A program made the translations under genes and the position numbers. Shown here piece after piece: positions 19,845 through 36,323 of a stretch of DNA of 64,000 nt (positions are counted from its first letter, which is position 1; every line of letters starts with the position of its first letter). The notes under the pieces were generated by a model. It made no database searches and had not been told where the DNA came from. It saw only the letters and a list, made by a program, of their open reading frames with translations. The stretch is from Acidobacteriota bacterium. GTDB lineage: Bacteria > Acidobacteriota > UBA890 > WLXD01. The DNA is taken from positions 864,001-928,000 of the forward strand of contig CAXWPH010000015.1 of the NCBI GenBank assembly GCA_963666055.2, given 5' to 3'.

Positions 19845-20096
19845 TCTTGAGCGGAGAAACCGTCGCTCCCTCAAATGAAACTCCCGGTCGGATGGTTAGG
19901 TGGCGACTTCATGGGTGGCCACTCCAGATCAAGGACCTTGCCACGATGATGCTCTGAGATCAGGAGCCAGGCACGAACGCATGAATGAGGCTGTTTGTGT
20001 GGAGTATCGTGGTCGGGGAGCTCAGCCAACGGCTCGGGGGCCGAGCCAGGATCACCCGCAACCGGGAAACGGGACAACTTGTATCGACAGCCAGGA

Positions 20097-22093
20097 GTGA
20101 GAGCGGCGGGCGGGTCGTTTCTCTTGTTTGCGCTGGCGGCGGCCTGGGTGGTGACATCGGGCCACTCACTCGCCGAGCAGGAGGAGGTCGAGGTGCGTCA
20201 TCCGCTCGACCCACTCACGGAGCGCGAGTACACCACCGTCAAGCGCGGGCTGAGACGCAGCGAGCATGTCGGCCCGATGGCGCGCTATCCATTGGTCACT
20301 CTCCACGAGCCAGCGAAGGCGGACGTACTGCGCTGGCAATCCGGCGAGACCATCGACCGCAAGGCGTTCGTGATCGTCAAGCAACGCCGGCGGGTCGCCG
20401 AGGCCATCGTCGATGCGCTGAGCGGAGAGGTGGTCTCGTGGACAGAGGTCGAAGGGGTGCAGCCAGGCGTGCTCATGACCGAGGAGTGGGCGATCGCCGT
20501 GGCGCTAGTCCGGCGCAACCCCGACTGGCAGGCAGCGGTCCGGGCGCGAGGGATTACCGACCTGTGGCGGGTAGTGTGCACGCCGCTGACGGTTGGCTAC
20601 TTCGGTCGCGCCGAGCGTGCTCGAAACCGACTGGCAAAGGTAATCTGCTTCGACGCGCAGGGAACGAGCAACTACTGGGGACGGCCGATTGAAGGGCTAG
20701 TTGCCACGGTCGACCTGGTCAAGCGCACCGTCGAACTGGTTGATACGGGGCCGTCCCGACGCCGCAATCGCCCGTAGACTTCGCCGGCGAGTTCGTCGGC
20801 GAGCTCCGAACGCCACCGAATCCGTTCGAGGCAACGCAGCCTCCGGGGCCGAGCTTCGAGCTCGATGGGCAGAGTGTGAGCTGGGAGAGGTGGCGTTTCC
20901 ACTTCCGCATCGATCCACGCCTGGGTCCGGTAATCTCGCTGGTGCGATACCAGGACGGCGGCAAGCTGCGGTCGATTCTGTATCAGGGCTCGCTATCGGA
21001 GCTGTTCGTTCCGTACATGGCGCCGGATGAGGGCTGGTACTTCAGAACCTACATGGACGCCGGCGAGTACGGCGTCGGCAAGCTGGCATCGCCCCTGCAA
21101 CCGAATCTGGACTGTCCGCCCGGGGCGGTCTTCTTCAATGCGGTGTTTGCCGACGACTGGGGTGACCCGTACACGACGCCACGAGCCGCTTGTCTGTTCG
21201 AGCGCAACGCCGGCGACATCGCCTGGCGGCACTACGAGTCGCTCACCGGGCGCACCGAGGTGCGCAGACGCACCGACCTGGTCTTGCGCTTTATCCCCGC
21301 GGTCGGCAACTACGACTACGTTCTCGACTGGGTGTTCCGACAGGACGGAACCCTGCAGGTGGACCTGGGGGCGACGGGGATCGCCCAGGTCAAGGCGGTG
21401 GCGAGCCGCACCATCGCCGACGACGGAGAGGGTCCAGACACCGACTACGGGCGCATGGTCGCCGCGCGCACGGTGGCGATCAACCACGACCATTTCTTCT
21501 CCTTCCGGCTCGATCTGGATGTAGACGGTACGCACAACAGCTTTCAGGTGGACCGCCTGCGTACCCAACGGCTCGAGGGTGACAGCCCACGCAAGAGCCT
21601 CTGGGTGGTGGAGCCGTCGATCGCCGCATCCGAGCAGGCCGCCAGGATGCGAATCGATCTCGAACAACCGGCACTGTGGCGGGTTATCAACCCCAACGTC
21701 CAGGGCCCAGTGGGCTACCCGGTGAGCTACGAGCTGAAGCCGCAGGCGAACGCCGTGTCGCTGCTGAAGCCGAACGATCCTCCGCAACAACGCGCCGGCT
21801 TCACCGACTTCCACCTATGGGTAACCCCTCACGACCCCGACGAGCGCTACGCGGCGGGGCTCTACCCGAACCAGAGTCCGGGTGGCCACGGGCTTCCCGA
21901 GTGGACCAGTGAGGATCGGTCGATCCTCAACACCGATCTGGTGCTCTGGTACACCCTCGGGGTGCATCATGTGGTGCGCGCCGAAGATTGGCCGGTGTTG
22001 CCGACCACGCGGAGTGGCTTCGAGCTGCGACCCTTCGACTTCTTCCCCAGGAATCCGGCTCTCGACATTTCCGAACAGGCCGAACAGGACTGA
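20097..22093 (+). CDS. tynA: Copper/TPQ primary amine oxidase, exported; frameshift at GGGG 20747-20750
   Basis: HPLDPLT, YMDAGEYG, VGNYDY (TPQ site), HDH and HH..EDWP Cu ligands; adding one G joins the two ORFs. Confidence 0.9.
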
Positions 22094-22120: not shown

Positions 22121-23027
22121 ATGCATGATGAAAACAAGCGGCGGGCGAATCTGACGAGACAGCTACCGTATGCGCCGATCGCGGTAGTGTTTCTTCTGCT
22201 TGTCCTCACGGCGGGCGTGGCCCACTCGCACGACATCTGGCTTCACGCCGACAGGTTCCGACTCGATGTCGGCGACACACTGATCATCCGGCAGCTGCTC
22301 GGCGCCGAGCTCGACAGCGACCTGTCGCGACCCGAGGCGACGCAGGAACTACCGCTCATGCGGTCCGTAACCTCGCGGCTGACGATGATCACCGACCAGG
22401 GGGCGGTCGACCTGCTGGCGCAGATGCAGGATCGGCCCACTCTCATGCCGGTGATCGAGCACCGGGTCGACTTTGAGGGCCTGGCCCTGGTGACCATGGA
22501 GCACTACCCGATCTATACCGAATTCACCAACGAGGAGTTCGTCGAGTATCTGGAGCACGAAGGGGTCTACAGCGAGGAGTTCCGTACGGCCATGGGATCG
22601 AGATCGGCGCAGGCCGAGTCCTACGTCCGGACGCTCAAGTGTCTGGTGCAGGTCGGAGATGACGACGCGGACGCCATCCCGAGCGAGCTACACAAGCAGG
22701 TTCTGGGTCAGAGGATCGAGATCGTGCTGCTCCAGAACCCGTACAGGCTAGATCCTGGCGACGAGCTCGCGGTCCAGGTGCTGGCGGATGGTGTCCCGGT
22801 TCAAGGTCAGCTTGTGAACGCGTACAACGCCGGCCGGGACCTGCCGGTCTCTAGGCAGCAGGCGCACACCGACGCCGAAGGCATCGCGCGCTTCACCCTC
22901 GACGGTGCGGGGCACTGGCTGGTTCGCCTGGTCAACCTGACCTCGTGCGCCGGGCGTACCGACGGCGAAGTGCGAAGACGCCGACTGGGACAGCGCCTGG
23001 GCCGCTTACAGCTTCGAACTGGACTAG
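22121..23027 (+). CDS. DUF4198 periplasmic protein; frameshift near 22964
   Basis: Signal peptide then HDIWL; IEIVLLQNPY, TDAEG, GHWLVR; shifted frame gives the C-terminus ADWDSAWAAYSFELD*. Confidence 0.8.
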
Positions 23028-23767: not shown

Positions 23768-26044
23768 ATGAGCACCATGTTCTGCCGTCGCCCCGGTTCG
23801 CTAGTACGCGCTGCCATGCCGGCGCTCGTACTTGTCCTTGTAACGCTGCTCGCCATACCGGTGGATGCCCAGCAGTCGGGCGACGAGGGGGCGAAGCCGG
23901 CGGCGCACAAGCAGGAGGAGCGCAAGCCGCGGATCGACGAACGCATCATGGTGGTGGGCAGTGTCGAGAACCTCGAGATCATCCCGGGATCGGCGAGCCG
24001 GATCGAGGGCGCCGAACTGCTCCGCACTCAGGCGGCGTTCGGGGATATCCACCGGATGCTGAGGTCGGTTCCCGGGGTCAACCTCCAGGAAGAAGAGGGC
24101 TTCGGCCTGCGGCCCAACATCGGCCTGCGTGGCTCGGGCTCGGAGCGTTCCTCCCGCATCACCCTCATGGAGGACGGGGTTCTGATCGCTCCCGCACCCT
24201 ATACGGCACCCTCCGCCTATTACTTCCCCACCGCGGGCAGGATGGAAGCGATCGAGGTGCGCAAGGGCTCGAGCCAGATCAAGTTCGGGCCGCGGACGAA
24301 CGGCGGAGCCTTGAACCTGGTGTCCACGCGGGTGCCCGATGCGTTCACCGTGCGCGCCGAGCTGGGCGGCGGCAGCCACGCGACCGCCAAGGGCCGCCTG
24401 TCGGTCGGTAACAGCTCGCGCAACTGGGGCTGGATGCTCGAGACCTACCAGCTGCGCAGCGAAGGCTTCAAGCAGATCGATGGCGGCGGCGACGCGGGCT
24501 TCCACCTGGGTGACTATCTGGGGAAGCTGCGGTACCGGACAACCGGTAGCGCCGACTCCTTCCACGAGATCGAGGTCAAGCTCGGATACGTGGGGCAGCG
24601 CGGCAACCAGACCTACCTCGGCCTGACCGACGTTGACTTTCAGGCGAATCCGATGCGTCGTTACGCCGGCTCGCAGCACGACCGGATCGAGACCGAGCAT
24701 CGGCAGCTCCAGCTCCGCCACTACGGGATGTTCAGCCCGGCCATCGACCTGACCACGGTCGCCTACCGCAATGAGTTCCAGCGCAACTGGTACAAGCTGC
24801 AGAGCGTTCAGGGTGCGGGGCTCTCAAGCGTGTTCGAGAGCCCGCTGATCTACGCCGAGGAACTCGCCATCCTACGCGGCGCCGACAGCGCCCGCGACGC
24901 ACTGAAACAGCGCCACAACAACCGCCAATACTACGGGCAGGGGATCCAAAGCGTCCTGGGCCTGCGCCTCGGCAACGGCGCCACCCGCCAGCAGCTCGAG
25001 GTTGGCGTGCGCTACCACGCCGACCAAGAGGACCGGTTCCAGAGCGAGGATGGCTACCAGATGATCAGTGGGCACAAGACGCTCAGCAGCGTCGGCGCCC
25101 CTGGCAGTCAGGCGAATCGGATCGGGGACTCCAGAGCCTGGGCCGTGTTCGTGCAGGATCAGATCTCGACGGGACACTGGACGATCACTCCGGGCCTACG
25201 CTTCGAGTCCATCGACATGACGCGAACCGACTACTCGAGAACCGACCCGAATCGTACGGCGCCGACCTGGATTCGACACTCGCAGATCGACGTGCTGCTT
25301 CCCGGCGCAGGTGTCGACTACCGCATCGGACACGGCAGCAATGTATTCCTCGGTGTCCATCGAGGTTTCGCGCCCCCGGGTCCCGGGGCCGCCGACGGGG
25401 TCCGGCCCGAGACCAGCATCAACTACGAGCTCGGCTACCGGCTGCGCGGCACCCGGGCGACGGCGGGCGTGACCGGCTTCTTCAACGACTACGACAACCT
25501 GCTGGGGTCGGACACGCTCTCGAGCGGCGGCCAGGGGACCGGCGACCAGTTCAACGGTGGCGCCGCACGCGTCTGGGGTCTCGAGGCATCGGCCTCCTAC
25601 CACCTTGCGGCCGCCGGCTCGGCACTGCGAGTGCCCTTCGCACTCTCCTATACCTGGACCCGGGGGGAGTTCCGCACCAGCTTCGAGAGCGACTACGAGC
25701 CCTGGGGAAATATCGCCGCCGGTGACGAGCTCCCCTACTTGCCCGAGCATCAGCTCAACGTCTCGCTCGGGCTCCAGGGAACACGCTGGGATGCGTTCGC
25801 GTCGGTGACCTCGGGCAGCGCTATGCGGACCGAGGCGGGCCATGGGCCGATCCCGCCGCGGCGCGGGACCGACGCCTTCGCCGTCGTCGATCTGACCGCG
25901 GGGTATCGATTGAGCAGCGACGTATGGCTGCAGGCGGCGCTGCAGAACGCCCTTGCCGCCACCTACATCGTGACGCGCCGGCCGGCCGGTGTGCGGCCCG
26001 GCCTGACACGGACCTTCGTGCTCGGGCTGACCTTGTCGCGCTAA
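23768..26044 (+). CDS. TonB-dependent receptor (FecA-like)
   Basis: Plug GLRPNIGLRG..ITLMEDG..APY..YYFP, IEVRKG; barrel; RPAGVRPG C-terminus. Confidence 0.93.
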   Translation: MSTMFCRRPGSLVRAAMPALVLVLVTLLAIPVDAQQSGDEGAKPAAHKQEERKPRIDERIMVVGSVENLEIIPGSASRIEGAELLRTQAAFGDIHRMLRSVPGVNLQEEEGFGLRPNIGLRGSGSERSSRITLMEDGVLIAPAPYTAPSAYYFPTAGRMEAIEVRKGSSQIKFGPRTNGGALNLVSTRVPDAFTVRAELGGGSHATAKGRLSVGNSSRNWGWMLETYQLRSEGFKQIDGGGDAGFHLGDYLGKLRYRTTGSADSFHEIEVKLGYVGQRGNQTYLGLTDVDFQANPMRRYAGSQHDRIETEHRQLQLRHYGMFSPAIDLTTVAYRNEFQRNWYKLQSVQGAGLSSVFESPLIYAEELAILRGADSARDALKQRHNNRQYYGQGIQSVLGLRLGNGATRQQLEVGVRYHADQEDRFQSEDGYQMISGHKTLSSVGAPGSQANRIGDSRAWAVFVQDQISTGHWTITPGLRFESIDMTRTDYSRTDPNRTAPTWIRHSQIDVLLPGAGVDYRIGHGSNVFLGVHRGFAPPGPGAADGVRPETSINYELGYRLRGTRATAGVTGFFNDYDNLLGSDTLSSGGQGTGDQFNGGAARVWGLEASASYHLAAAGSALRVPFALSYTWTRGEFRTSFESDYEPWGNIAAGDELPYLPEHQLNVSLGLQGTRWDAFASVTSGSAMRTEAGHGPIPPRRGTDAFAVVDLTAGYRLSSDVWLQAALQNALAATYIVTRRPAGVRPGLTRTFVLGLTLSR

Positions 26045-26096
26045 CCGGGTCGGTGCACGACGCTGCAGCACCGGATCATCCGTCCTCGCTGAGGTC

Positions 26097-26146
26097 GATC
26101 TCCGTTGAAACAGGGAGCCTGAAGATGCTACCGACTACTCGCTTCA
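26097..26146 (+). repeat. 50-bp direct repeat copy 1 (RBS + first codons of the cupin-like gene)
   Basis: 49/50 identical to 32114-32163. Confidence 0.9.
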
Positions 26147-26322
26147 CCTAGCAGGCCGTGGTGGAAGTGTGGCGGGCCTGGCGACAGGGTCTTGCGAGGT
26201 GGAGGCAAGGAGAGAGGAGGAGGCGATGGTTACCCCATCGTTGACGAGGAACGACGCAGCATACGCGCGCAACCCCCTATCGCCCGGAGGGTTACGCCAC
26301 ACTTTCACCACGGCCTGCTAGG
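26147..26322 (+). mobile_element. MITE-like element, short form (176 bp)
   Basis: TIR cctagcaggccgtggtg(g/a)aagtgtgg...ccacactttcaccacggcctgctagg; internal hairpins; no transposase. Confidence 0.8.
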
Positions 26323-26536
26323 TTTGATGGGGCGGGAGACGGCTGGGTATACCGCGTCCCCGTGGGTGGTGGTCCCAGAGGGACGCTGCCCAGAGGCGGG
26401 AACAAACAAGCAGGGTATCGTCACCTTCTTGGAGTACCTGTCACGCCACGGCGTTACTTCACTCTGGGACGCTGGTAGCTTCAACTACCACGATCTCACG
26501 TACTCGCTGCTGGACGCGAGGCGAGCCTGTGCGTAG
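26323..26536 (+). pseudogene. Amidohydrolase internal fragment
   Basis: FLEYLSRHGVTSLWDAG resembles the GITSVVDAG segment of the gene at 5546. Confidence 0.45.
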
Positions 26537-28096
26537 TCACTCCTTCTTCTGTTCTTCTTCCTTCTCTTCCTCTGCCTTTGTCGCGTCCAGGTGCTGTTGC
26601 TGGTCGCCATAGTGGTCGTCTATGGCGTGCTCGGATGACAACGGGCTCAGGTAATGCTTCTCAGTCAGCTCTTCCTTGTTCATCGCGAGTCCCGTCAGGC
26701 ACGCTTTGATGATATGCACGCTGTTGAGCGTAGTCCTGTAGGTCGGATCCAGTGCAGGATGCAATTCGACCAGGTCGAAACCCACCACATTGGACTCCGC
26801 ACACAGGCGGCGCACGATGGTAATCGCTTCGCGCATGGTGAGCCCGCCTGGAACCGGTGTGCCGGTAGCCACTGCGAATGCGGGATCGAGAACATCAATG
26901 TCAAAAGAGATGTGCAGCTTGCGCCCCTCTTCACTGGCCTCGGCGACAACCCGGTCAAGCACGGCATCCCAGCCCCGCCGCTCAATCTCGGCCATGGTGT
27001 GATAACGCATGCCCTGTTCCCGCATCCAATTGAAACCCGACTTGTCGGGTCCGCTCGAGCGCAGCCCGACCTGGATGTAATCCGCAGCCCGCACATGGCC
27101 TTCATTAATCAGGCGGTACACCGGGTATCCATGATTGATCAGGTGGGCGCTTTCGCCCCACCACGCATCGTAATGCGAGTCGAAGTGAATAACCGATACC
27201 TTTTCCTTGCCATAAACGTCCGCCAAGGCCGCAACATTGGGGTATTCCAATGAGTGGTCGCCGCCGACAATCATGGGTACGGCTCCCGTCTCCGCGATCT
27301 CGCGCACGATCTCGCGTACGTGGCGCATGGACCGTTCGGTGCTGTCGTTGTCTACCGCAACGTCGCCGTAGTCCACGACGGTCAGTACCTCAGATGCATT
27401 AATTTGCACATACTGGTCCTCTCCGCCCATGGCCCGGCCGCGCAGGCGAAGGTCGACGGTGGCGCGCTCACCCGAGTCGCGCCATCCCGAGCCCATGTTC
27501 AGGGGCGCGCCCAGGATGGCGACATCAACCTCACCCGCGACGAGGTCTTCCTTCGACAGCGCCAGGGGGAAACCGCCAAATGTTGGCGGACCGCGCCTGC
27601 CGCGATAGCGACCGAGCGCGACCGGTCCCGCCTCCCGCTCTGGATCCATGGATCGGGGACGCAGTAATCGCCATGCATTGAAATCGGGCGATTCGGTATT
27701 GAAGGGAATGTTGGGCAAGTCTCGTCCTTCGGTGTAGCGGCTTTGTTCCACTACCTGTTGCATGGCCTCGACCCACGCCTTTACTTCCTCCGGTGTGCGT
27801 TTCTCGAGCGCTTCAACGGCTTTTTCGGCTGGCCCGGTAAAGGCACGCGCATCGGCGCTCTTCAGAAACTCGATTTGCTCCGGCGTCAGCAATTCGAGCT
27901 TTGCCGCCACGCTGTCGGGCAGTTCAATAGGCGGCTGTTCCTCCTCCCGTGCGTCGACGGTGTCAAACGGATACGCCCGCGCACCGACGACGTGCTCCTG
28001 GGTGCCAGGCCTTTCATCCTGGGCCCAGGCGACCGGTGCAGCCGCCGTCACAAGCAAGAGCAGTGCGGCACGAATGCTGATCGAACCGAATGTCAT
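26537..28096 (-). CDS. Exported ureohydrolase (agmatinase family), intact metal site
   Basis: GGDHS, FDSHYD, FDIDVLDP, TGTPVPGG, DLVE; signal peptide; RBS ggag. Confidence 0.9.
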   Translation of the reverse strand: MTFGSISIRAALLLLVTAAAPVAWAQDERPGTQEHVVGARAYPFDTVDAREEEQPPIELPDSVAAKLELLTPEQIEFLKSADARAFTGPAEKAVEALEKRTPEEVKAWVEAMQQVVEQSRYTEGRDLPNIPFNTESPDFNAWRLLRPRSMDPEREAGPVALGRYRGRRGPPTFGGFPLALSKEDLVAGEVDVAILGAPLNMGSGWRDSGERATVDLRLRGRAMGGEDQYVQINASEVLTVVDYGDVAVDNDSTERSMRHVREIVREIAETGAVPMIVGGDHSLEYPNVAALADVYGKEKVSVIHFDSHYDAWWGESAHLINHGYPVYRLINEGHVRAADYIQVGLRSSGPDKSGFNWMREQGMRYHTMAEIERRGWDAVLDRVVAEASEEGRKLHISFDIDVLDPAFAVATGTPVPGGLTMREAITIVRRLCAESNVVGFDLVELHPALDPTYRTTLNSVHIIKACLTGLAMNKEELTEKHYLSPLSSEHAIDDHYGDQQQHLDATKAEEEKEEEQKKE

Positions 28097-28130
28097 AGCA
28101 ATGCTCCAATACGTGTGGGCCGGGCGCATA

Positions 28131-29522
28131 CTATCGCTGGCCATGATCGAGCGCCAAGGGATGAACGTAGTCCGGGTCGAGGCCCGCCTTGCGCACCGCG
28201 ATGCCAACCAGGCAGGCATTCAGCGCAGCATTCGCATGCATTATCGACAGTCGAGAGGAATCCAGCATCGGGGCCATGTCCGTGATTTCAAAACCGACGA
28301 TCTCTTTCGCCGCGCACACATGGCGGACTGCCTGGGTCACTTCCTCAAGACCCAAGCCATTGTGCGTTGCACGCCCAGCCGCAACCATCTCGGCAGGGTT
28401 AACGACGCTGACATCGATCGAGACGAAATAGGCGTCGGGGCCTCTGGCGACTTCCTGCAGTACCCGTTGCATAACTCTCTCGGATCCGCGTTGCCGGAAT
28501 TCAGCCATCGTGTGGTAGCGGACACCCTGGTCACGCAGCCATTGCAGTGTGTCCGCATCTACCGCGGGTCCGCGTAAGCCAACCTGGACGGTTTCGCTGC
28601 CTTCCACGATGCCCTCGTCCAACAGCAGGAAAAGCGCCTGACGGTCAGAAATCGTATGGTCACCGTTGCGCTCGGCATCTGGGTGGGCGCTGAAGTGCAG
28701 CAATCCAAAGCTCCCATTTCCGTGTACCCGGGCGACGCCACTGACGGCAGGATAGAGCAAGGACGTATCACCGCCGACCAGCATCGGGATGGCGCCGGTG
28801 CGCGCGGTTTCGGCAACCATGGCGGCAACGTGGTTGACGGTTCTTTCTGTGCTCATCTGGTCGACAGCAAAATCACCGTAGTCGACCACGGAGAGTGTTT
28901 CGAACGGCTTCACCAGGGATTGCACGTCTGGCATGGCAATGGTGTTCAGGCCACGCATTTCGCTCGGGCCGTTTTTAGCGTCGCGCCGGCCGCTGCTCGC
29001 ATTCCCTGGCACGCCGACGATCGCCACGTCCACATTGCCTGCGACGAGATCTTCCGGCCAGATGGCGACATCGGCGCCACCAAACGTAGGTACACCGGTT
29101 TTCGGAAACAGGTAACGGTGCACGCTGAACGGGCCCGGCTCACGTTCGAAATCGCGCAACAATGCCGGTGTAGGCATGGCCCCACCGAAACTCTTGGTAG
29201 TGAGGTTGAGGGGTGCCGCGCCCATGTCTCGCTCCGGGTCATAACCCATTTTGTCGGCGAGCGACATCAGGTCGTCCAGCAGAGATCGCAGGCTGTTTGC
29301 ATCACGCGTGGCGAGTTCGTGTTCGAGCTGCCGCTCCGGAATATATTTGAGTATCGCGCCTGATGTAATGAACTCGATCTGTTCATCATTCAGCACGCTC
29401 GCTTGCGCCTGCAGCTCGCCCGGTATGGACCGTTGCCCAAGCGCGGTTTCAACGGAGAGCAGCAGCAATGCCGAACAAATTGTGAGCAGAGCACGATGCG
29501 TCAACAATCGTCGAGAGATCAT
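28131..29522 (-). CDS. Exported ureohydrolase paralog with degenerate metal ligands
   Basis: Same fold but GGDTS, FSAHPD, IDVSVVNP, EITD; signal peptide. Confidence 0.85.
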   Translation of the reverse strand: MISRRLLTHRALLTICSALLLLSVETALGQRSIPGELQAQASVLNDEQIEFITSGAILKYIPERQLEHELATRDANSLRSLLDDLMSLADKMGYDPERDMGAAPLNLTTKSFGGAMPTPALLRDFEREPGPFSVHRYLFPKTGVPTFGGADVAIWPEDLVAGNVDVAIVGVPGNASSGRRDAKNGPSEMRGLNTIAMPDVQSLVKPFETLSVVDYGDFAVDQMSTERTVNHVAAMVAETARTGAIPMLVGGDTSLLYPAVSGVARVHGNGSFGLLHFSAHPDAERNGDHTISDRQALFLLLDEGIVEGSETVQVGLRGPAVDADTLQWLRDQGVRYHTMAEFRQRGSERVMQRVLQEVARGPDAYFVSIDVSVVNPAEMVAAGRATHNGLGLEEVTQAVRHVCAAKEIVGFEITDMAPMLDSSRLSIMHANAALNACLVGIAVRKAGLDPDYVHPLALDHGQR

Positions 29523-29561
29523 ATTGTCCGCCTGACTCCAATTGATGGAATTCGAATCTTC

Positions 29562-30602
29562 TTATCGCCAGAACACCATGATGCGTTCCACGGTCCAGAT
29601 AATCGTAGTGCCACCGACGGTATAAGCCAGCGGCTGTTCAATTCTTCGCAGCCAGTCGAGCGGCTTGAGTTCCTTAACCTGTCTCGAGTTGGTACTTTCA
29701 ATAAAGCTCAGCTGTCCTATAAGCGACGTTATGATCCAGACAGTCGCGATGATGACGCCGACAAACAGAAGCTGACCAATTTCTACGCCGACATTAAACG
29801 CCAGCAGCGCGGCTGGCACTTCCGTCTGGGGGAGACCGATCTCACTCAACGCCGAGGCAAAACCAAAACCGTGTAGCAAACCAAATGATGCCGACACCAC
29901 GATGGGATAACGCCAGGTCAGCGTGTCGCGGCGCTGCAGTGCGATCTCTCGCGCCAGGAACACAATGGACAGTGCAATAACCGCCTCGATCGGAGGTATC
30001 GGCAATCGCACCAGGTCCAGGGCGGCCAGGGTCAGGGTAATGGAATGAGCGAGAGTAAAGCCGGTGATGGTGATCAGGATGCGGTGTCCGGTGCCTGCGA
30101 TCAGCACCAGGCAGGCGATAAACAACAAATGATCAATCCCACCCAGGATGTGTTCGATCCCAAATACCGTGTAGGTCCTTGCCACCTCCAAGCGCGATAG
30201 GGACTCGCCCACTACGAAGGAAGGATTGGCCGCCAGCAGTCGGGCAACGATGGTGGTGCCGTCCAGCCGCTCGATGCGCACCAGTACCTCGGTAGACGCC
30301 GTAGACAAGCCTTCGATGACAATTTCTGAGCCGGCCAGACCACCACTACTACTTATAGAATAACGTTCGATGTAGGCGCCACCGATCATAGAACCGCGGA
30401 CCGTACTGATCCTGTCAACGTCGGCCGGGAATCTAACATAGAGGCCGAGGCGTCGATCACCCAGGGCCGGCACCTTCCACAACACCTCGAAGACTTCATC
30501 ACTGGACTGTCGCAGCTGCAGAAATGCCGGGCGGTACTCGTCTGCCTGTACAGTTCCAACCGACAGGAGCATAAGAAGGGCGATGAGCAAGAATCTATTC
30601 AT
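29562..30602 (-). CDS. HupE/UreJ-family membrane protein
   Basis: HILGGIDHLLF, FTLAHSITL, FGLLHGFGFA, FNVGVEIGQL. Confidence 0.92.
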   Translation of the reverse strand: MNRFLLIALLMLLSVGTVQADEYRPAFLQLRQSSDEVFEVLWKVPALGDRRLGLYVRFPADVDRISTVRGSMIGGAYIERYSISSSGGLAGSEIVIEGLSTASTEVLVRIERLDGTTIVARLLAANPSFVVGESLSRLEVARTYTVFGIEHILGGIDHLLFIACLVLIAGTGHRILITITGFTLAHSITLTLAALDLVRLPIPPIEAVIALSIVFLAREIALQRRDTLTWRYPIVVSASFGLLHGFGFASALSEIGLPQTEVPAALLAFNVGVEIGQLLFVGVIIATVWIITSLIGQLSFIESTNSRQVKELKPLDWLRRIEQPLAYTVGGTTIIWTVERIMVFWR

Positions 30603-30615
30603 CGTCGGCCACTTC

Positions 30616-31527
30616 CTAATCCTCGCGGGAACTTGCAGCGACAGCGCTCAGGTCGGACGCAGTCGGTTCAGCAAGCGTCACAATATAACGCTCACGCAAG
30701 GCGCTATAAGAAGCTTCGTTGGTCTCTTCGCGTTTCGCAGACGTCCAATCCCGTGACACGAGATCTCGAATATCATCAAGCGGAGGAACGATGCCTTCAA
30801 CCCGTTCAGTAAGCTTGACCAGGTGTAATCCAAAGTCGGATTCAATGGGTCCCTGCCAGCTGCCGACTGGCAACGATTGTAGTCCCGCTAAAAACTGGCT
30901 TCCCATGGCACGCAGTATCTGGCGCTCATAGGCCTTGTTGAACTGCGACAGCAATAATCGATCGCCCAGCAGAGCCGTATCGATGCTGGCATTGGAGTCG
31001 TCGCCAGGCCCCGTCGTATCAGGCTGTCGCAGTTCAGCTAACAGAAAGTCTGCGTCTGCCTCAGCCGAGCTACCACGCTCGCTGACATTGAAATAGACCT
31101 GCTCAAAACTGAAACGAGTTTGCTCACGGAATCGTTCCTGATGTGTTGCCAGAAAAGCCTCCAGTTCGGCCTCAGTGGGTTCCCCCAGTCTGGCGACATC
31201 TTCGGTAAGAAATGCCAGCTTCTGTTGCAAACGCTGCCGGATGATGGGGTCGTCACGATCGAGACCCATAGCCAGCGCCTCGCGGTACATGACCTCTCCA
31301 CGAATGTGGGCCTGTAGCAGACCATCCAGTTCCTGTTCTGTGGGCGGGCGTTGCCAGTCTCTCTCGAATCCCACAATCAGCGCATCGATGTGGCCCTCGG
31401 TGATGACTATTTCTTCCAGAGGCTGGTTGCCGGAGAATCCAGCATCGGAGACCAATTGGTAAGTACCGAACATCGCCGCACCTAGCAGCAGGAAATACAA
31501 TAGGGGTTCTCGTAGAATGTTTCTCAT
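30616..31527 (-). CDS. PpiC/rotamase-like peptidyl-prolyl isomerase
   Basis: LREPLLYFLLLG, REALAMGLDRDD.IIR.RL.QK, WQGPIES.FGLHLV. Confidence 0.88.
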   Translation of the reverse strand: MRNILREPLLYFLLLGAAMFGTYQLVSDAGFSGNQPLEEIVITEGHIDALIVGFERDWQRPPTEQELDGLLQAHIRGEVMYREALAMGLDRDDPIIRQRLQQKLAFLTEDVARLGEPTEAELEAFLATHQERFREQTRFSFEQVYFNVSERGSSAEADADFLLAELRQPDTTGPGDDSNASIDTALLGDRLLLSQFNKAYERQILRAMGSQFLAGLQSLPVGSWQGPIESDFGLHLVKLTERVEGIVPPLDDIRDLVSRDWTSAKREETNEASYSALRERYIVTLAEPTASDLSAVAASSRED

Positions 31528-31553
31528 AGTGTACTGCTTCTCAATTTGCTGAG

Positions 31554-31640
31554 TTATGCGCAGAACCTGTACCAGATCGGTGAAGTACAGGCACGCTCCT
31601 GACCACTCATGTACATCGTGTCGGACATCGGGATTATTAA
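31554..31640 (-). pseudogene. DUF3604 C-terminal remnant
   Basis: Reads IPMSDTMYMSGQERACTSPIWYRFCA*, matching the QERAxTSPIWY end of DUF3604, at its usual position upstream of PPIase-HupE/UreJ. Confidence 0.7.
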
Positions 31641-31904
31641 GACTCGAACTCGAAATTATCCAGGTAGGAAAGCAACTCGTTCAGCTTGGATGGCCGGGTA
31701 TAGGCAGAATAAAGACTGTCGCCATTCAAGTCTACGCATTCTTTGTCAGGAAATATTATCCTGTCTTGCTCCAAAACCTTCAGAAATCTCCCTAAAGTGC
31801 CACGACATTAACCAAGATTGCGATTCATTAGCCTTCCGATTAGCGACGCTCGAATTAGTTGCTATCTCAGGCCGAAGCTCGCTGCCTCCGTGCTAACCTG
31901 CTTC

Positions 31905-32029
31905 ATGGCGTAACCTCCTGCCGCTCGTGGCGGCGTTGTGTGTTCCTACTCGGAGGTTACGCCATCTCTATTTCCACAGGACGCGGGCCGGATCCAGCGG
32001 AAGGCTGGGGCGGTTAAGTTGACAGTGCC
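31905..32029. mobile_element. IS6-like element end remnant
   Basis: 14-bp perfect IR atggcgtaacctcc/ggaggttacgccat, then aagttgacagtgcc (rc GGCACTGTCAACTT). Confidence 0.4.
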
Positions 32030-32113
32030 TAATCGAGGCCGTTGCGACGATGCTCTCGAAGAAGAAATAGGAAAAACAATCACAAGACTTAGTCGCTTAT
32101 GTAAGCTGAGACA

Positions 32114-32163
32114 GATCTCCGTTGAAACAGGGAGCCTGAAGATGCCACCGACTACTCGCTTCA
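32114..32163 (+). repeat. 50-bp direct repeat copy 2
   Basis: 49/50 identical to 26097-26146. Confidence 0.9.
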
Positions 32164-32492: not shown

Positions 32493-32577
32493 CTTCCGAG
32501 CTTGTCGGTGATCAACCATCGCGGTCCTCATCAGGAGGCGGTCGAAGCGGGGGTGTTGGAAGCGACCCTACAGTTGA

Positions 32578-32856
32578 CCTAGCAGGCCGTGGTGAAAGTG
32601 TGGTGGGTCTGGTTACGGCGAGTTGGGGCCAGATGGAAGGCGGCCTGACACAGGCGATGCCCTAGCCATCGTCCAGGAAGGCAACGCCGCAAATGGCCCC
32701 AAATCGCCGTAATCCTTCGGGCGAAAGGGGGTTGCGCGCGTATCCTGCGTCGTTCCTCGTCAACGATGGGTAACCATCGCCTCCTCCTCTCTCCTTGCCT
32801 CCACTTCGCAACACCCTGTCGCCAGACCCACCACACTTTCACCACGGCCTGCTAGG
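32578..32856 (-). mobile_element. MITE-like element, long form (279 bp), inverted relative to the 26147 copy
   Basis: Perfect TIR cctagcaggccgtggtgaaagtgtgg; contains the whole short form plus a ~100-bp extra module. Confidence 0.82.
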
Positions 32857-32947
32857 TGACTGGAGGCAGCTTCTATAAGAACATGTGGTTGCTCGCGCCA
32901 TGGGGCCACCGTGAACGCTCCTCCTGCTGCCAGCGTTAGCTAGAGAA

Positions 32948-34337: not shown

Positions 34338-36323
34338 ATGAAGAAGAGCGATCGTGAGCTGGGCATGAACCGGGAGATCACCCGTCGCGACCTCCTGAGC
34401 GGAACGAGCATCGCGATCGCGGGAGCGGCCCTTGCGCCGGGGGAAGTGGGGGCGCAGGGACGCGATGCCCGGCTGGCTCCGGCCGCATCTCCAGTTGTCG
34501 ATCAATCTGCGATCCAGGAGACGTACTATCCGCCAACCCGTACGGGGATGCGGGGCAGCCATCCGGGGTCGTTCGAGGTGGCTCATCGCATGCGGTTCGG
34601 CGAGACGTGGGACGACCCGCAGGAAACAGGGGAAGAGTACGACCTGATCGTGGTGGGTGGCGGGTTGAGCGGTCTCGGGGCGGCCTACTACTTCCGCAAG
34701 GCGATGCCTGAGGCTCGGGTCCTGATTCTGGAGAACCACGACGACTTCGGAGGGCACGCGAAGCGGAACGAGGCCATGGTCGACGGGCGCCAGGTCATCG
34801 GCTGGGGAGGCACGACGTACATCACCGGAGCCTATACGTACGAAGGCCTGGAGTTGCTGCACGACATCGGCCTGGATGCGGAGGTGTACAGGCGTGCGAA
34901 CGTGGGACGAAGCTTACGGGCGCGAGAGCCGGATTTGGGAAGCGCGGTCTTGTTCGACGAGGAGACGTTCGGTGAGGATCGCCTGGTGGTAGGAGAACCC
35001 GGATCGGACGAGCCGGAGGCCTGGACGAAATGGCTTCGAAAGACGCCGCTCTCGGACCGGGTGCAGAAGGACATCGCGAAGCTGTACCAGACGCAGGAGG
35101 ATTACTTCCCCGGATTGTCGGTGGAGGAGAAGATCGCTCGGCTCCGCAAGATGAGCTATCAGGACTATCTGCTGAACGTCGTCGGCGTCGACCCGGACGT
35201 GATCCCCTTCTTCATGCGCCGCGGCCCGGATGCCAATGGCACGGCCGGTATCGATACGTTGAGCGGATGGGCTGCGTTCCGGTACAGCGGTTTACCCGGG
35301 CTGCAGGGCCTCGGGCTCGGGGAGCCGCCGCCGAGAGACGGATTCCCCGGGCTGGAGAATCCGTTCGATGGCATGCACTTCCCCGACGGAAATGCTGGCA
35401 TCGCCCGCCTGCTCGTGCGCTGGCTGATTCCGGGTTCGCTACCGGGCGAGACGATGAACGATTCGGTGCCGACGCGGGTCCGGTATTCGACCCTCGACCG
35501 GACGGAAAACGACGTGCGTATCCGTCTCAACAGCACGGTGGTGAACGCCCACCACGTGGGCGATCGGGCGAAGGCGAACGCGGTGGATGTCACGTACGTA
35601 CGGGACGGCCAGGCGCATCGCGTGCGCGCAGGCACCTGCGTGATGGCGTGCTACAACTCGGTGATCCCGTATCTGTGTCCCGAGCTGCCGGAGGACCAGA
35701 AAGAACACCTGCATATGGCGGTGCGCAGACCCTTCGTTGCGGCCAACGTCATGGTTCGCGACTGGCGAGCGTTCGAGCGGCTCGGTGTGGCGCGCATCCA
35801 TTGCCCGGGCGCGTACTTCGAAAGTGTCAGTCTTGACGGTTACAGCAACAGCTTCGGGGAATACCAGACCGCCCAGTTGCCCGACGAACCGGTCGTCGTA
35901 GGGCTCTGGGCATCTCCGATCGCTCCGGGGCTCCCCGTACGGGACCAGTGGCGGGCCGCACGGGAGGAGCTTCTGGCCATGTCGTTCGAAACGTTCGAGC
36001 GTGGCATCAGGGATCAGCTTGCTCGTGCCCTGGGGGAGGGAGGCTTCGATCCCGCCCGGGACATCGAGGCCATCTTCGTCAACCGCTGGCCCCACGGGTA
36101 CGCGGGCGCAGGCAATGACCTCTTCGACCCCGACTGGGGGTACGACGAGGCTCCCTGGGTATTGGGCCGTAAGCGGTTCGGGCGGATCGCCATCGCCAAC
36201 TCCGACGCGGCCGCGTCTTGTCTTACACAGGCGGCGTTCGACCAGGCACATCGAGCGGTCCAAGAGCTGATCATCGACGTCATTCGACCCGAATTCCAGT
36301 ATCCGTGGGCGGAGAGGACCTAG
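34338..36323 (+). CDS. Spermidine dehydrogenase (SpdH)-like FAD oxidoreductase, Tat-exported
   Basis: ITRRDLL, YYPPTRTGMRGSH, VVGGGLSG, GGHAKRNE, HFPDGNA, NRWPHGY, IANSDA. Confidence 0.88.
   Translation: MKKSDRELGMNREITRRDLLSGTSIAIAGAALAPGEVGAQGRDARLAPAASPVVDQSAIQETYYPPTRTGMRGSHPGSFEVAHRMRFGETWDDPQETGEEYDLIVVGGGLSGLGAAYYFRKAMPEARVLILENHDDFGGHAKRNEAMVDGRQVIGWGGTTYITGAYTYEGLELLHDIGLDAEVYRRANVGRSLRAREPDLGSAVLFDEETFGEDRLVVGEPGSDEPEAWTKWLRKTPLSDRVQKDIAKLYQTQEDYFPGLSVEEKIARLRKMSYQDYLLNVVGVDPDVIPFFMRRGPDANGTAGIDTLSGWAAFRYSGLPGLQGLGLGEPPPRDGFPGLENPFDGMHFPDGNAGIARLLVRWLIPGSLPGETMNDSVPTRVRYSTLDRTENDVRIRLNSTVVNAHHVGDRAKANAVDVTYVRDGQAHRVRAGTCVMACYNSVIPYLCPELPEDQKEHLHMAVRRPFVAANVMVRDWRAFERLGVARIHCPGAYFESVSLDGYSNSFGEYQTAQLPDEPVVVGLWASPIAPGLPVRDQWRAAREELLAMSFETFERGIRDQLARALGEGGFDPARDIEAIFVNRWPHGYAGAGNDLFDPDWGYDEAPWVLGRKRFGRIAIANSDAAASCLTQAAFDQAHRAVQELIIDVIRPEFQYPWAERT

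Follow-up and report, generated by a model that had tools for sequence, protein, structure and literature searches.

Do two adjacent ureohydrolase genes, one with an intact metal site and one with a degenerate site, both apparently exported, encode a single periplasmic enzyme? The question is raised by a gene cluster in a stretch of 64,000 nucleotides (nt) from an Acidobacteriota bacterium (assembly GCA_963666055.2, contig CAXWPH010000015.1, positions 864,001 to 928,000), referred to here as the window; its genome is 95.7% complete. Four co-directional open reading frames (ORFs) occupy positions 26537-31527 on the minus strand in the order peptidyl-prolyl isomerase (PPIase)-like, HupE/UreJ-2, B and A, with intergenic gaps of 13, 39 and 1-34 nt. 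An original prediction, made from the sequence letters, had described this arrangement and its tight spacing correctly. The four features are:

30616..31527, minus strand: parvulin-type (Rotamase_2) PPIase-like protein with an N-terminal hydrophobic anchor
29562..30602, minus strand: HupE/UreJ-2 protein (PF13795) with signal peptide, periplasmic beta-sandwich and membrane domain; mature residue 1 is Asp
28131..29522, minus strand: gene B, 463 amino acids (aa), predicted exported paralog of A, pseudo-enzyme
26537..28096, minus strand: gene A, 519 aa (alternative starts 28129 and 28144), with a signal peptide of ~25 aa, an N-terminal extension of ~140 aa, an arginase-fold domain and an acidic tail

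Pfam matches have E values of 6.8e-12 (Rotamase_2), 2.1e-42 (PF13795), 2e-46 (Arginase PF00491, B) and 2.7e-70 (PF00491, A); the PF00491 scores are 237.5 bits for A and 159.1 bits for B at a cut-off of 22. The HupE/UreJ-2 ORF gives a weak HupE_UreJ match besides HupE_UreJ_2. The PPIase-like protein presumably resembles PpiD/SurA-like chaperones, its isomerase activity being only predicted. Gene A had been read as a 560-aa ORF from 28219. Its place stood, whereas that start is the less likely one, since it overlaps B by 89 nt; 28096, which gives a standard signal peptide, or 28129, which is coupled to the stop of B, is more likely the true start. Contigs of a public run (X1), possibly the source sample, match 26810-32143 with 0 differing letters, so the motifs of A and B are no assembly errors.

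A and B probably constitute an exported heteromeric guanidino hydrolase in which B is an inert partner, as residues, gene pairing and a predicted complex suggest. The two proteins are 36% identical over 434 residues, the N-terminal extension included. A carries the motifs GGDHS, DSHYD and DID, with intact di-metal ligands (H281, D306, H308, D310, D399, D401) and the catalytic H322/T413/E444. B carries GGDTS, SAHPD and DVS: T253, S278 and S372 replace three metal ligands, H280, D282 and D370 are retained, D293 replaces the catalytic His, R384 stands at the place of A T413, and D415 substitutes for the Glu277-equivalent. The His101, Asp124, His141, Asp234 and Glu277 equivalents are taken to follow arginase numbering, and, judged by the geometry of arginase, B would presumably lose two of four protein ligands at each of its two metal sites. 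Alignments comprised the best 120 of 2628 A matches and the best 119 of 804 B matches (E<=1e-30). Eight tallied sites of A are invariant in 120/120 matches. The 119 B matches have T or S for His101 (117/2), S or N for Asp124 (107/12), S for Asp234 (118), D for His141 (119) and D for Glu277 (119); R384 is invariant in a 79-row B alignment. By the six-ligand criterion for an active ureohydrolase, all six are kept in A and its 120 matches, whereas three of six are replaced in B and its matches. The motifs first described for both proteins, with three ligands lost in a full-length B, were confirmed; the changes of catalytic His to Asp, of Thr to Arg in GT(G)TP and of the Glu277-equivalent to Asp had been missed.

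Ratios of nonsynonymous to synonymous substitutions (dN/dS) against the window, from 10 pairwise comparisons, are 0.13-0.34 for B and 0.13-0.24 for A. B does not evolve neutrally, and the fixed substitutions together with dN/dS mark it as a selected pseudo-enzyme, not a pseudogene. Public records name the homologues of A and B 'agmatinase'. Both proteins fall below every NCBIfam cut-off (A 141.2 vs 174.3 for TIGR01230 and 184.9 vs 302 for NF002564; B lower). At another locus, the window genome has a canonical SpeB-like gene that scores 435 bits vs the cut-off of 302.

The conservation of the pairing, proposed as a check of the original prediction, was borne out. A GTDB scan with B gave 38 loci, 37 of them with an A-clade gene directly downstream (five cut by contig ends); the exception, L035, carries two intact paralogs but lacks B. 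Of the 10 loci given by a metagenome scan with A, the A-clade ones have B directly upstream (7/7) and the remaining three are distant short proteins. The pair occurs in the window genome and in 4/4 same-genus genomes; within the phylum it was found in this genus only, and any match in 6/401 genomes. In 4/4 loci (L029, L063, L104, L112), a further degenerate subtype, B', comes after an intact paralog. Record titles of the pair loci point mostly to marine, sediment, soda-lake and soil Gammaproteobacteria, with few Acidobacteriota.

Signal peptides were called by a hydrophobicity heuristic, an 11-residue hydrophobic stretch near the N-terminus. Such a stretch is present in 119/120 A and 112/119 B matches vs 2/15 short reference proteins, which supports the signal peptides ascribed earlier to both proteins. 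The twin-arginine pattern RR-x-[FL]-[LIM] occurs in 2/120 A and 1/119 B matches. Export by the general secretory (Sec) route with folding of A and B in the periplasm is the better reading of these N-termini. Sec export would mean that cytoplasmic HypAB could not load the metal site, and that a weakly binding metal would face competition as for MncA/CucA (PMC4192464).

Structural matches place the core of A among known folds. PDB matches cover the core only, beginning at residue 169 or later, and Foldseek template-modelling (TM) scores of 0.74-0.88, by target, identify an arginase fold. The N-terminal extension is absent from solved structures; ESM Atlas searches with it gave only scores under 0.8, in clusters partly labelled Arginase. 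The A:B pair was co-folded 1:1 in three runs, with 3 controls. The interaction score ipSAE (interaction prediction score from aligned errors) was 0.78, 0.76 and 0.78 for the pair and 0.00 for the best control, so that the multimer modelling suggested beforehand predicts an A:B heteromer. The pass mark was reached in calibration by 116/157 solved and 2/215 mismatched pairs; close cousins pass there too, and the pass of A:B may reflect homo-oligomeric family likeness. The runs share at least 95% of ~220 predicted contacts, with a partner pLDDT (predicted local distance difference test) of at least 90. About 63% of the interface residues lie in the extensions (42/67 of A, 35/55 of B), and the contact is pseudo-two-fold, 45/57 alignable A interface positions mapping to B interface positions. 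The predicted interface packs on active-site loops of A (residues 200-207, 314-321, 448-451); B would therefore order or gate the pocket of A. The AlphaFold2 monomer of A has a pLDDT of 70, with loops 126-168, 204-208 and 313-320 under 50. These loops overlap the A:B interface, the two models coming from different methods, and their low confidence made a pocket analysis impossible.

The ancestry of the pair was traced by quick maximum-likelihood trees with supports from the Shimodaira-Hasegawa-like approximate likelihood ratio test (SH-aLRT). A search of 50% representatives returned many long, signal-bearing relatives. The main tree, of the catalytic core, held 104/108 rows; a wrong-frame row, own_C14b, P0299 and one L103 row were dropped. 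The long forms make one clade (94), A-like plus B-like proteins a subclade (100), and 23 degenerate proteins one clade (99); a 45-row tree gave the same three clades at 98, 100 and 99. B' keeps His101 and Asp124 and shares an Asp/Ser/Arg/Asp signature with B, and the passage from B' to B reads in the alignments as a graded ligand loss. MfmA and MfmB (plasmid pKHPS2) group together, far from the long clade. Joining MfmB to the B clade was rejected by an approximately unbiased (AU) test posed after the first tree had been seen (p=3.5e-15). By these trees, B arose independently of MfmB, and it came to resemble MfmAB by convergence and not through common descent. The phylogeny called for by the original prediction thus set MfmA/B apart from the B clade, GdmH being absent from the trees. 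A second long clade, mostly with signal-peptide-like N-termini, keeps six metal ligands and has the catalytic His variously replaced (L119; P0275, P0277, P0279, P0282, P0283, P0288, P0295, P0297, P0307, P0332, P0367), which suggests other substrates. The window genome itself has three further long exported paralogs with intact sites (G000:C15:1258674, C3:11534, C3:10202; L039, L040); one is frameshifted, and one is flanked by a Rieske oxygenase on one side and an amidohydrolase on the other.

In the proposed mechanism, A and B, both with signal-peptide-like N-termini, would assemble as a periplasmic hetero-oligomer. The two-metal site of A would hydrolyse an N-substituted guanidine to urea and a primary amine, and B with its broken site would act as structural partner. 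The candidate substrate is an uncharged-side-chain or amine-bearing alkyl or aralkyl guanidine (methylguanidine, agmatine-like compounds, aralkyl guanidines). Methylguanidine is hydrolysed to urea and methylamine (PMC12623156; PMC12508155). Where such genes exist, urea would be passed on via UrtABCDE/urease, and the amine would be oxidised by periplasmic amine dehydrogenases. UrtA is present in 16/39 family-bearing genomes, within 20 kb of the family in 6 of the 16 (one partial, at a contig end), and near it in the plasmid locus L063 as well. Urease stands beside the family in L023, L035 and L103 and 8 kb away in G403. The heavy chain of a tryptophan tryptophylquinone (TTQ) amine dehydrogenase was found in 25/39 family-bearing genomes vs 14/151 in an order-wide sample, a comparison of phylogenetically non-independent genomes with a set from one order; five of the 39 genomes were picked after their loci were seen. 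Kinship and picking preclude a p-value for the TTQ/Urt association. The heavy chain lies within 23 kb in four genomes, and in a fifth probably across a contig break. In genome G404, Urt and urease come before B-A, and a cluster for TTQ amine dehydrogenase lies 13 kb off. A guanidine/urea carboxylase cluster lies 17-25 kb from its pair; the stretch 17-32 kb away includes a carboxylase and allophanate hydrolase as well as HupE-2, two DUF1989 genes and a TonB receptor. The G403 island comprises B, A, A', B', Urt, urease, a sensor kinase, a TonB receptor, PPIase, HupE-2 and TTQ dehydrogenase; in Novosphingobium RL4, A' and B' stand between two PPIase+HupE-2 modules, followed by Urt. This gene context points to a conversion of alkylguanidine into urea and amine in the periplasm.

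The G404 region (G404:C1:5044762-5082000; L023, L187, L188) forms a nitrogen island of ~35 kb that also contains a Rieske oxygenase. HypA near other exported paralogs of G404 was discounted as part of a NiFe hydrogenase cluster. Sphingomonad-order islands (L063, L035+L180, L103+L178, L104+L179) share a ureohydrolase pair, PPIase, a HupE-2 with Asp as mature residue 1 (Asp1), a TonB receptor, Urt and a tetratricopeptide-repeat (TPR) sulfotransferase.

Several observations weigh against an exported, heteromeric enzyme at the entry of such a pathway. The long family occurs in 19/301 genomes of the order of G401; as 15 of these 19 carry just one long gene, the fold can function in the absence of B. 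In the order of G402 it occurs in 3/301. Some RR pair is found in the first 20 residues of 41/119 B matches, and export by the twin-arginine (Tat) route is possible. Conservation at the interface is no higher than in the remainder of the proteins (A 0.78 vs 0.85; B 0.76 vs 0.81). Most pair loci have unrelated, varying neighbours, and searches of the window genome gave no UrtA, urease, UreG, HypA, HypB, TTQ dehydrogenase or full urea carboxylase. The pathway context consequently rests on a minority of genomes, and in the window genome, lacking urea genes, the gain would be amine or urea cross-feeding. The kinship behind the TTQ count and the family likeness behind the co-fold pass count on the same side. 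The argG gene near single-gene members in ~11 sphingomonad-order loci was treated as one synteny block and left uncounted.

The best-surviving alternative, itself unlikely, is that A:B is a nickel enzyme like MfmAB or GdmH, whose metal would be loaded by the neighbouring HupE/UreJ and whose folding would fall to the PPIase next to it. PPIase+HupE-2 modules, 24-27% and 36-51% identical to those of the window, stand beside the family in L026, L027, L063 (twice), L102 and L117. Five picked sphingomonad-order genomes have 1-2 PF13795 genes each, one within 17 kb of the family, and the module travels in a 5.1-kb cassette in a genome without urease to serve. The anglerase RbAng-1a binds both Cu2+ and Ni2+, the latter with a Kd of 220 nM (PMC12537917). 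Against nickel stands the absence of HypA/HypB from all 46 pair loci; HypA was found in 1/5 genomes searched, inside a hydrogenase cluster. A also keeps the His/Thr/Glu of Mn-type enzymes, whereas MfmA has Asn/Ala. The module is missing from 30/37 loci, 28/37 having at least 2.5 kb upstream: PPIase and/or HupE-2 lies near the pair in 7/37 genome and 2/7 metagenome loci. Elsewhere it adjoins DUF3604, YHYH and TonB-receptor genes, and its role in the islands may lie with urease instead. The first mature residue of Ang-1 proteins (His1), reported as 100% conserved, is a Ni/Cu ligand of anglerases (PMC12537917) and is replaced by Asp in the window HupE. Among the 120 best HupE matches, 88 were readable by pattern, 86 with Asp and 2 with His; the other 32 fell outside the pattern, 30 being Asp by eye and 2 truncated. 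Asp1 also occurs in six sphingomonad HupE-2 copies near the family, while the copies of L026, L027 and L117 keep His. With HypA/HypB absent, Asp1 in HupE-2 and the module near 7/37 loci only, the nickel loading by an own helper that had been proposed at first is not supported.

The window HupE has the two-domain, anglerase-like architecture of PF13795. It gave no PDB chain sequence match at E up to 1 and weak fold matches to ZrgA/PA4063 (E 0.0016) and 9GCE (E 0.025). Its likeness to the short mfmAB HupE is 31% over 100 aa only; the HupE/UreJ label given earlier holds in the sense of PF13795, not of the short mfmAB type. The linkage of this gene to the pair was likewise upheld in part: it is not conserved (7/37; HupE cleanly absent in the same-genus genome G275 and frameshifted in G069), yet it recurs in distant modules beside the family in several lineages. 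A close HupE-2 ortholog in G402 lies far from the pair. Taken together, the comparisons describe PPIase plus Asp1 HupE-2 as a general, recurrent and optional envelope module, which may help in folding or metal supply. For the enzyme itself, Mn2+ as the family default seems somewhat likelier than Ni2+, with other metals taking the rest. Metal choice in the ureohydrolase family is called an open question (PMC11399263), and the sequence cannot settle it. A literature search for the PPIase/HupE/DUF3604 combination returned only unrelated papers. As side observations, a large Asp1 subfamily of HupE/UreJ-2 anglerase-like proteins was recorded (window 29562-30602, P0392-P0511; L141, L143, L144, L145, L063, L163, L166), and the window genome holds a second module of PPIase and His1 HupE-2 with no ureohydrolase (L041:8161-9749; G000:C15:254184), its PPIase seemingly truncated or frameshifted.

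Less likely still, A could be a self-sufficient homo-oligomer and B a separate periplasmic protein for binding, sensing or inhibition, with a remodelled acidic pocket. That this pocket (D282, D293, D370, D415, R384) would bind either a guanidinium ligand or a single metal ion is equally doubtful. The replacement residues are invariant, beyond what a mere scaffold would require; the family has single-gene members, and B' subtypes retain different ligand subsets. On the other side, B or B' was never seen apart from a neighbouring intact paralog where the contig was long enough to tell, the predicted interface is extensive, and MefH-beta sets the precedent of an obligate scaffold (PMC11399263). 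A decaying duplicate B, with mis-called starts read as signal peptides at an ordinary cytoplasmic agmatinase locus, could invoke the public names and the frameshifted genes nearby and is highly improbable, being refuted by dN/dS values far below 1, by fixed substitutions, by the full length of 119 matches and by conserved hydrophobic N-termini, and opposed by scores far under the agmatinase cut-offs (141 vs 174; 185 vs 302) and the canonical SpeB-like gene elsewhere.

The pair, here again taken as an exported heteromer, lies in a cassette with a history of its own. G+C content at third codon positions (GC3) is 0.56-0.70 in its four genes vs 0.77-0.86 in five neighbours, and in the gammaproteobacterial locus L002 all four recur at 86-93% identity; on these two grounds horizontal acquisition is likely. 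Three same-genus genomes share the cassette at ~90% DNA identity, with differing flanks. A marine-sediment contig (run X15, contig 13, 5548 nt) carries the whole cassette at ~93-94% identity, with an odd joint at 29565/31696. Two repeats flank the genes:

26144..26323: palindromic repeat resembling a miniature inverted-repeat transposable element (MITE) or repetitive extragenic palindrome (REP), just downstream of A; related copy at 32574-32859
26088..26146, plus strand: 59-nt direct repeat; second copy (93%) at 32105-32163 on the opposite side of the cassette

The palindrome is spread over the whole genome (at least 118 places of at least 120 nt) and is not cassette-specific, which ruled it out as the ends of a mobile element. 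The 59-nt repeat has one further copy in the genome, and its pair is possibly an insertion scar. A promoter and terminator scan remained at chance level (2 vs 2.3; 6 vs 4.3). Within 18000-42000 no Rfam family reached its gathering score, and hence no guanidine riboswitch was found there. RNA evidence consisted of contigs covering small shares only, and expression was not demonstrated.

Neighbouring genes were tried as partners of the cassette. A copper amine oxidase (19995-22093) is split by an apparent frameshift near 20750 and is possibly a real pseudogene, since the public contig matches without differences. The sole DUF4198 gene of the genome (22121-23503), of a family of secreted Ni-binding proteins (PMC12537917), has an apparent frameshift near 22950 and precedes a TonB-dependent receptor (23768-26044) that converges on gene A. 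Oxidase and DUF4198 were rejected as partners (0/46 pair loci; both seem frameshifted). The spermidine dehydrogenase homolog at 34338-36323 (E 6e-135 to SpdH) was set aside as well, as the window genome has 32 tblastn hits of this kind and only 3/46 pair loci have one. This SpdH expansion is unusual, and Amidohydro_3 proteins (29 hits) are expanded in the window genome too.

A wider reading is conceivable, with a lower probability than the heteromer itself: an unrecognised periplasmic branch of the ureohydrolases, in which a new N-terminal helical module builds obligate enzyme/pseudo-enzyme heterodimers at the entry of a TonB-fed alkylguanidine pathway, Urt taking the urea, TTQ dehydrogenases the amines, and Asp1 HupE plus chaperone the metal loading. 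If true, its hosts would be marine, sponge-associated and soil bacteria. The pair would be a second, independently evolved enzyme/pseudo-enzyme ureohydrolase pair after MefH/DmgH, whose heteromer was called unprecedented in 2024 (PMC11399263), and the B' to B series of ligand loss shows how such pairs arise. The family is widespread in marine and soil bacteria under the generic label 'agmatinase'. If it is periplasmic, a way for bacteria to make urea from guanidino compounds comes to light, and the family offers a test case for loading a weakly bound metal outside the cytoplasm, the problem known from MncA/CucA (PMC4192464). An old activity such as methylguanidine amidinohydrolase, cited in PMC12623156, may find its gene here as well. 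The characterised bacterial ureohydrolases found in the literature are all cytoplasmic. No paper on a periplasmic, secreted or extracellular agmatinase, arginase or guanidinobutyrase was found, subscription papers lying mostly outside the search. Listings and abstract openings likewise gave no published account of the A/B clade, in keeping with the view that it is undescribed; the Limnocylindrales tandem mentioned in PMC11399263 lay outside the comparison.

Among known systems, MfmAB (MefH/DmgH; PDB 8RYI, 8SNF, 8X3G; PMC11399263; PMC10927577; bioRxiv 2025.04.28.651035) is the architectural precedent: tandem paralogs about one-third identical, one with six ligands and one degenerate, with a HupE/UreJ-type gene nearby and urea genes in some operons (PMC11399263; PMC10927577). 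MfmA and MfmB lack signal peptides, whereas the N-termini of A and B are signal-peptide-like; MfmB loses four ligands and B three in another pattern; mfmAB is accompanied by hypA/hypB and a short HupE, the A/B loci not by HypA/HypB; and here the pseudo-enzyme gene comes first and A keeps the catalytic His absent in MfmA. An obligate heteromer of alpha2beta4 stoichiometry and Ni2+ dependence further characterise MfmAB; the 1:1 model of A and B supports a contact between the two chains. GdmH and the Nitrospira guanidinase (7ESR, 9FEK) are the top phmmer match of A (E 8.8e-39), and GdmH has N-terminal loops at subunit interfaces (PMC10927577). The motifs differ (MHTCPW and GTGWP in 7ESR vs NHGYPV and ATGTP in A), and the extension of A is unmatched. 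Thr for the catalytic His and Trp in the GTGxP loop are taken to define GdmH, and A has neither by the 7ESR alignment. The Candida proteins Agt1 and Gbu1 (PMC7439472) are ureohydrolases with a predicted secretion for the scavenging of guanidino compounds, but they are eukaryotic, single active enzymes. The anglerase Ang-1-HupE/UreJ-2 (9GCE) shares signal peptide, periplasmic beta-sandwich and PF13795 with the window HupE at a fold match weaker than E 0.001, and differs by His1 in place of Asp. GbuA, GpuA, SpeB and proclavaminate amidinohydrolase (3NIO, 3NIP, 7LOL, 1GQ6) are the best sequence and fold matches of A, with the arginase fold, its ligands and its His/Thr/Glu; they are ~30% identical over the core only, short, encoded singly and without signal peptide or 140-aa extension. 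Judged by sequence, the pair resembles MefH/DmgH in its architecture and SpeB/GbuA in its catalytic residues, and is a member of neither.

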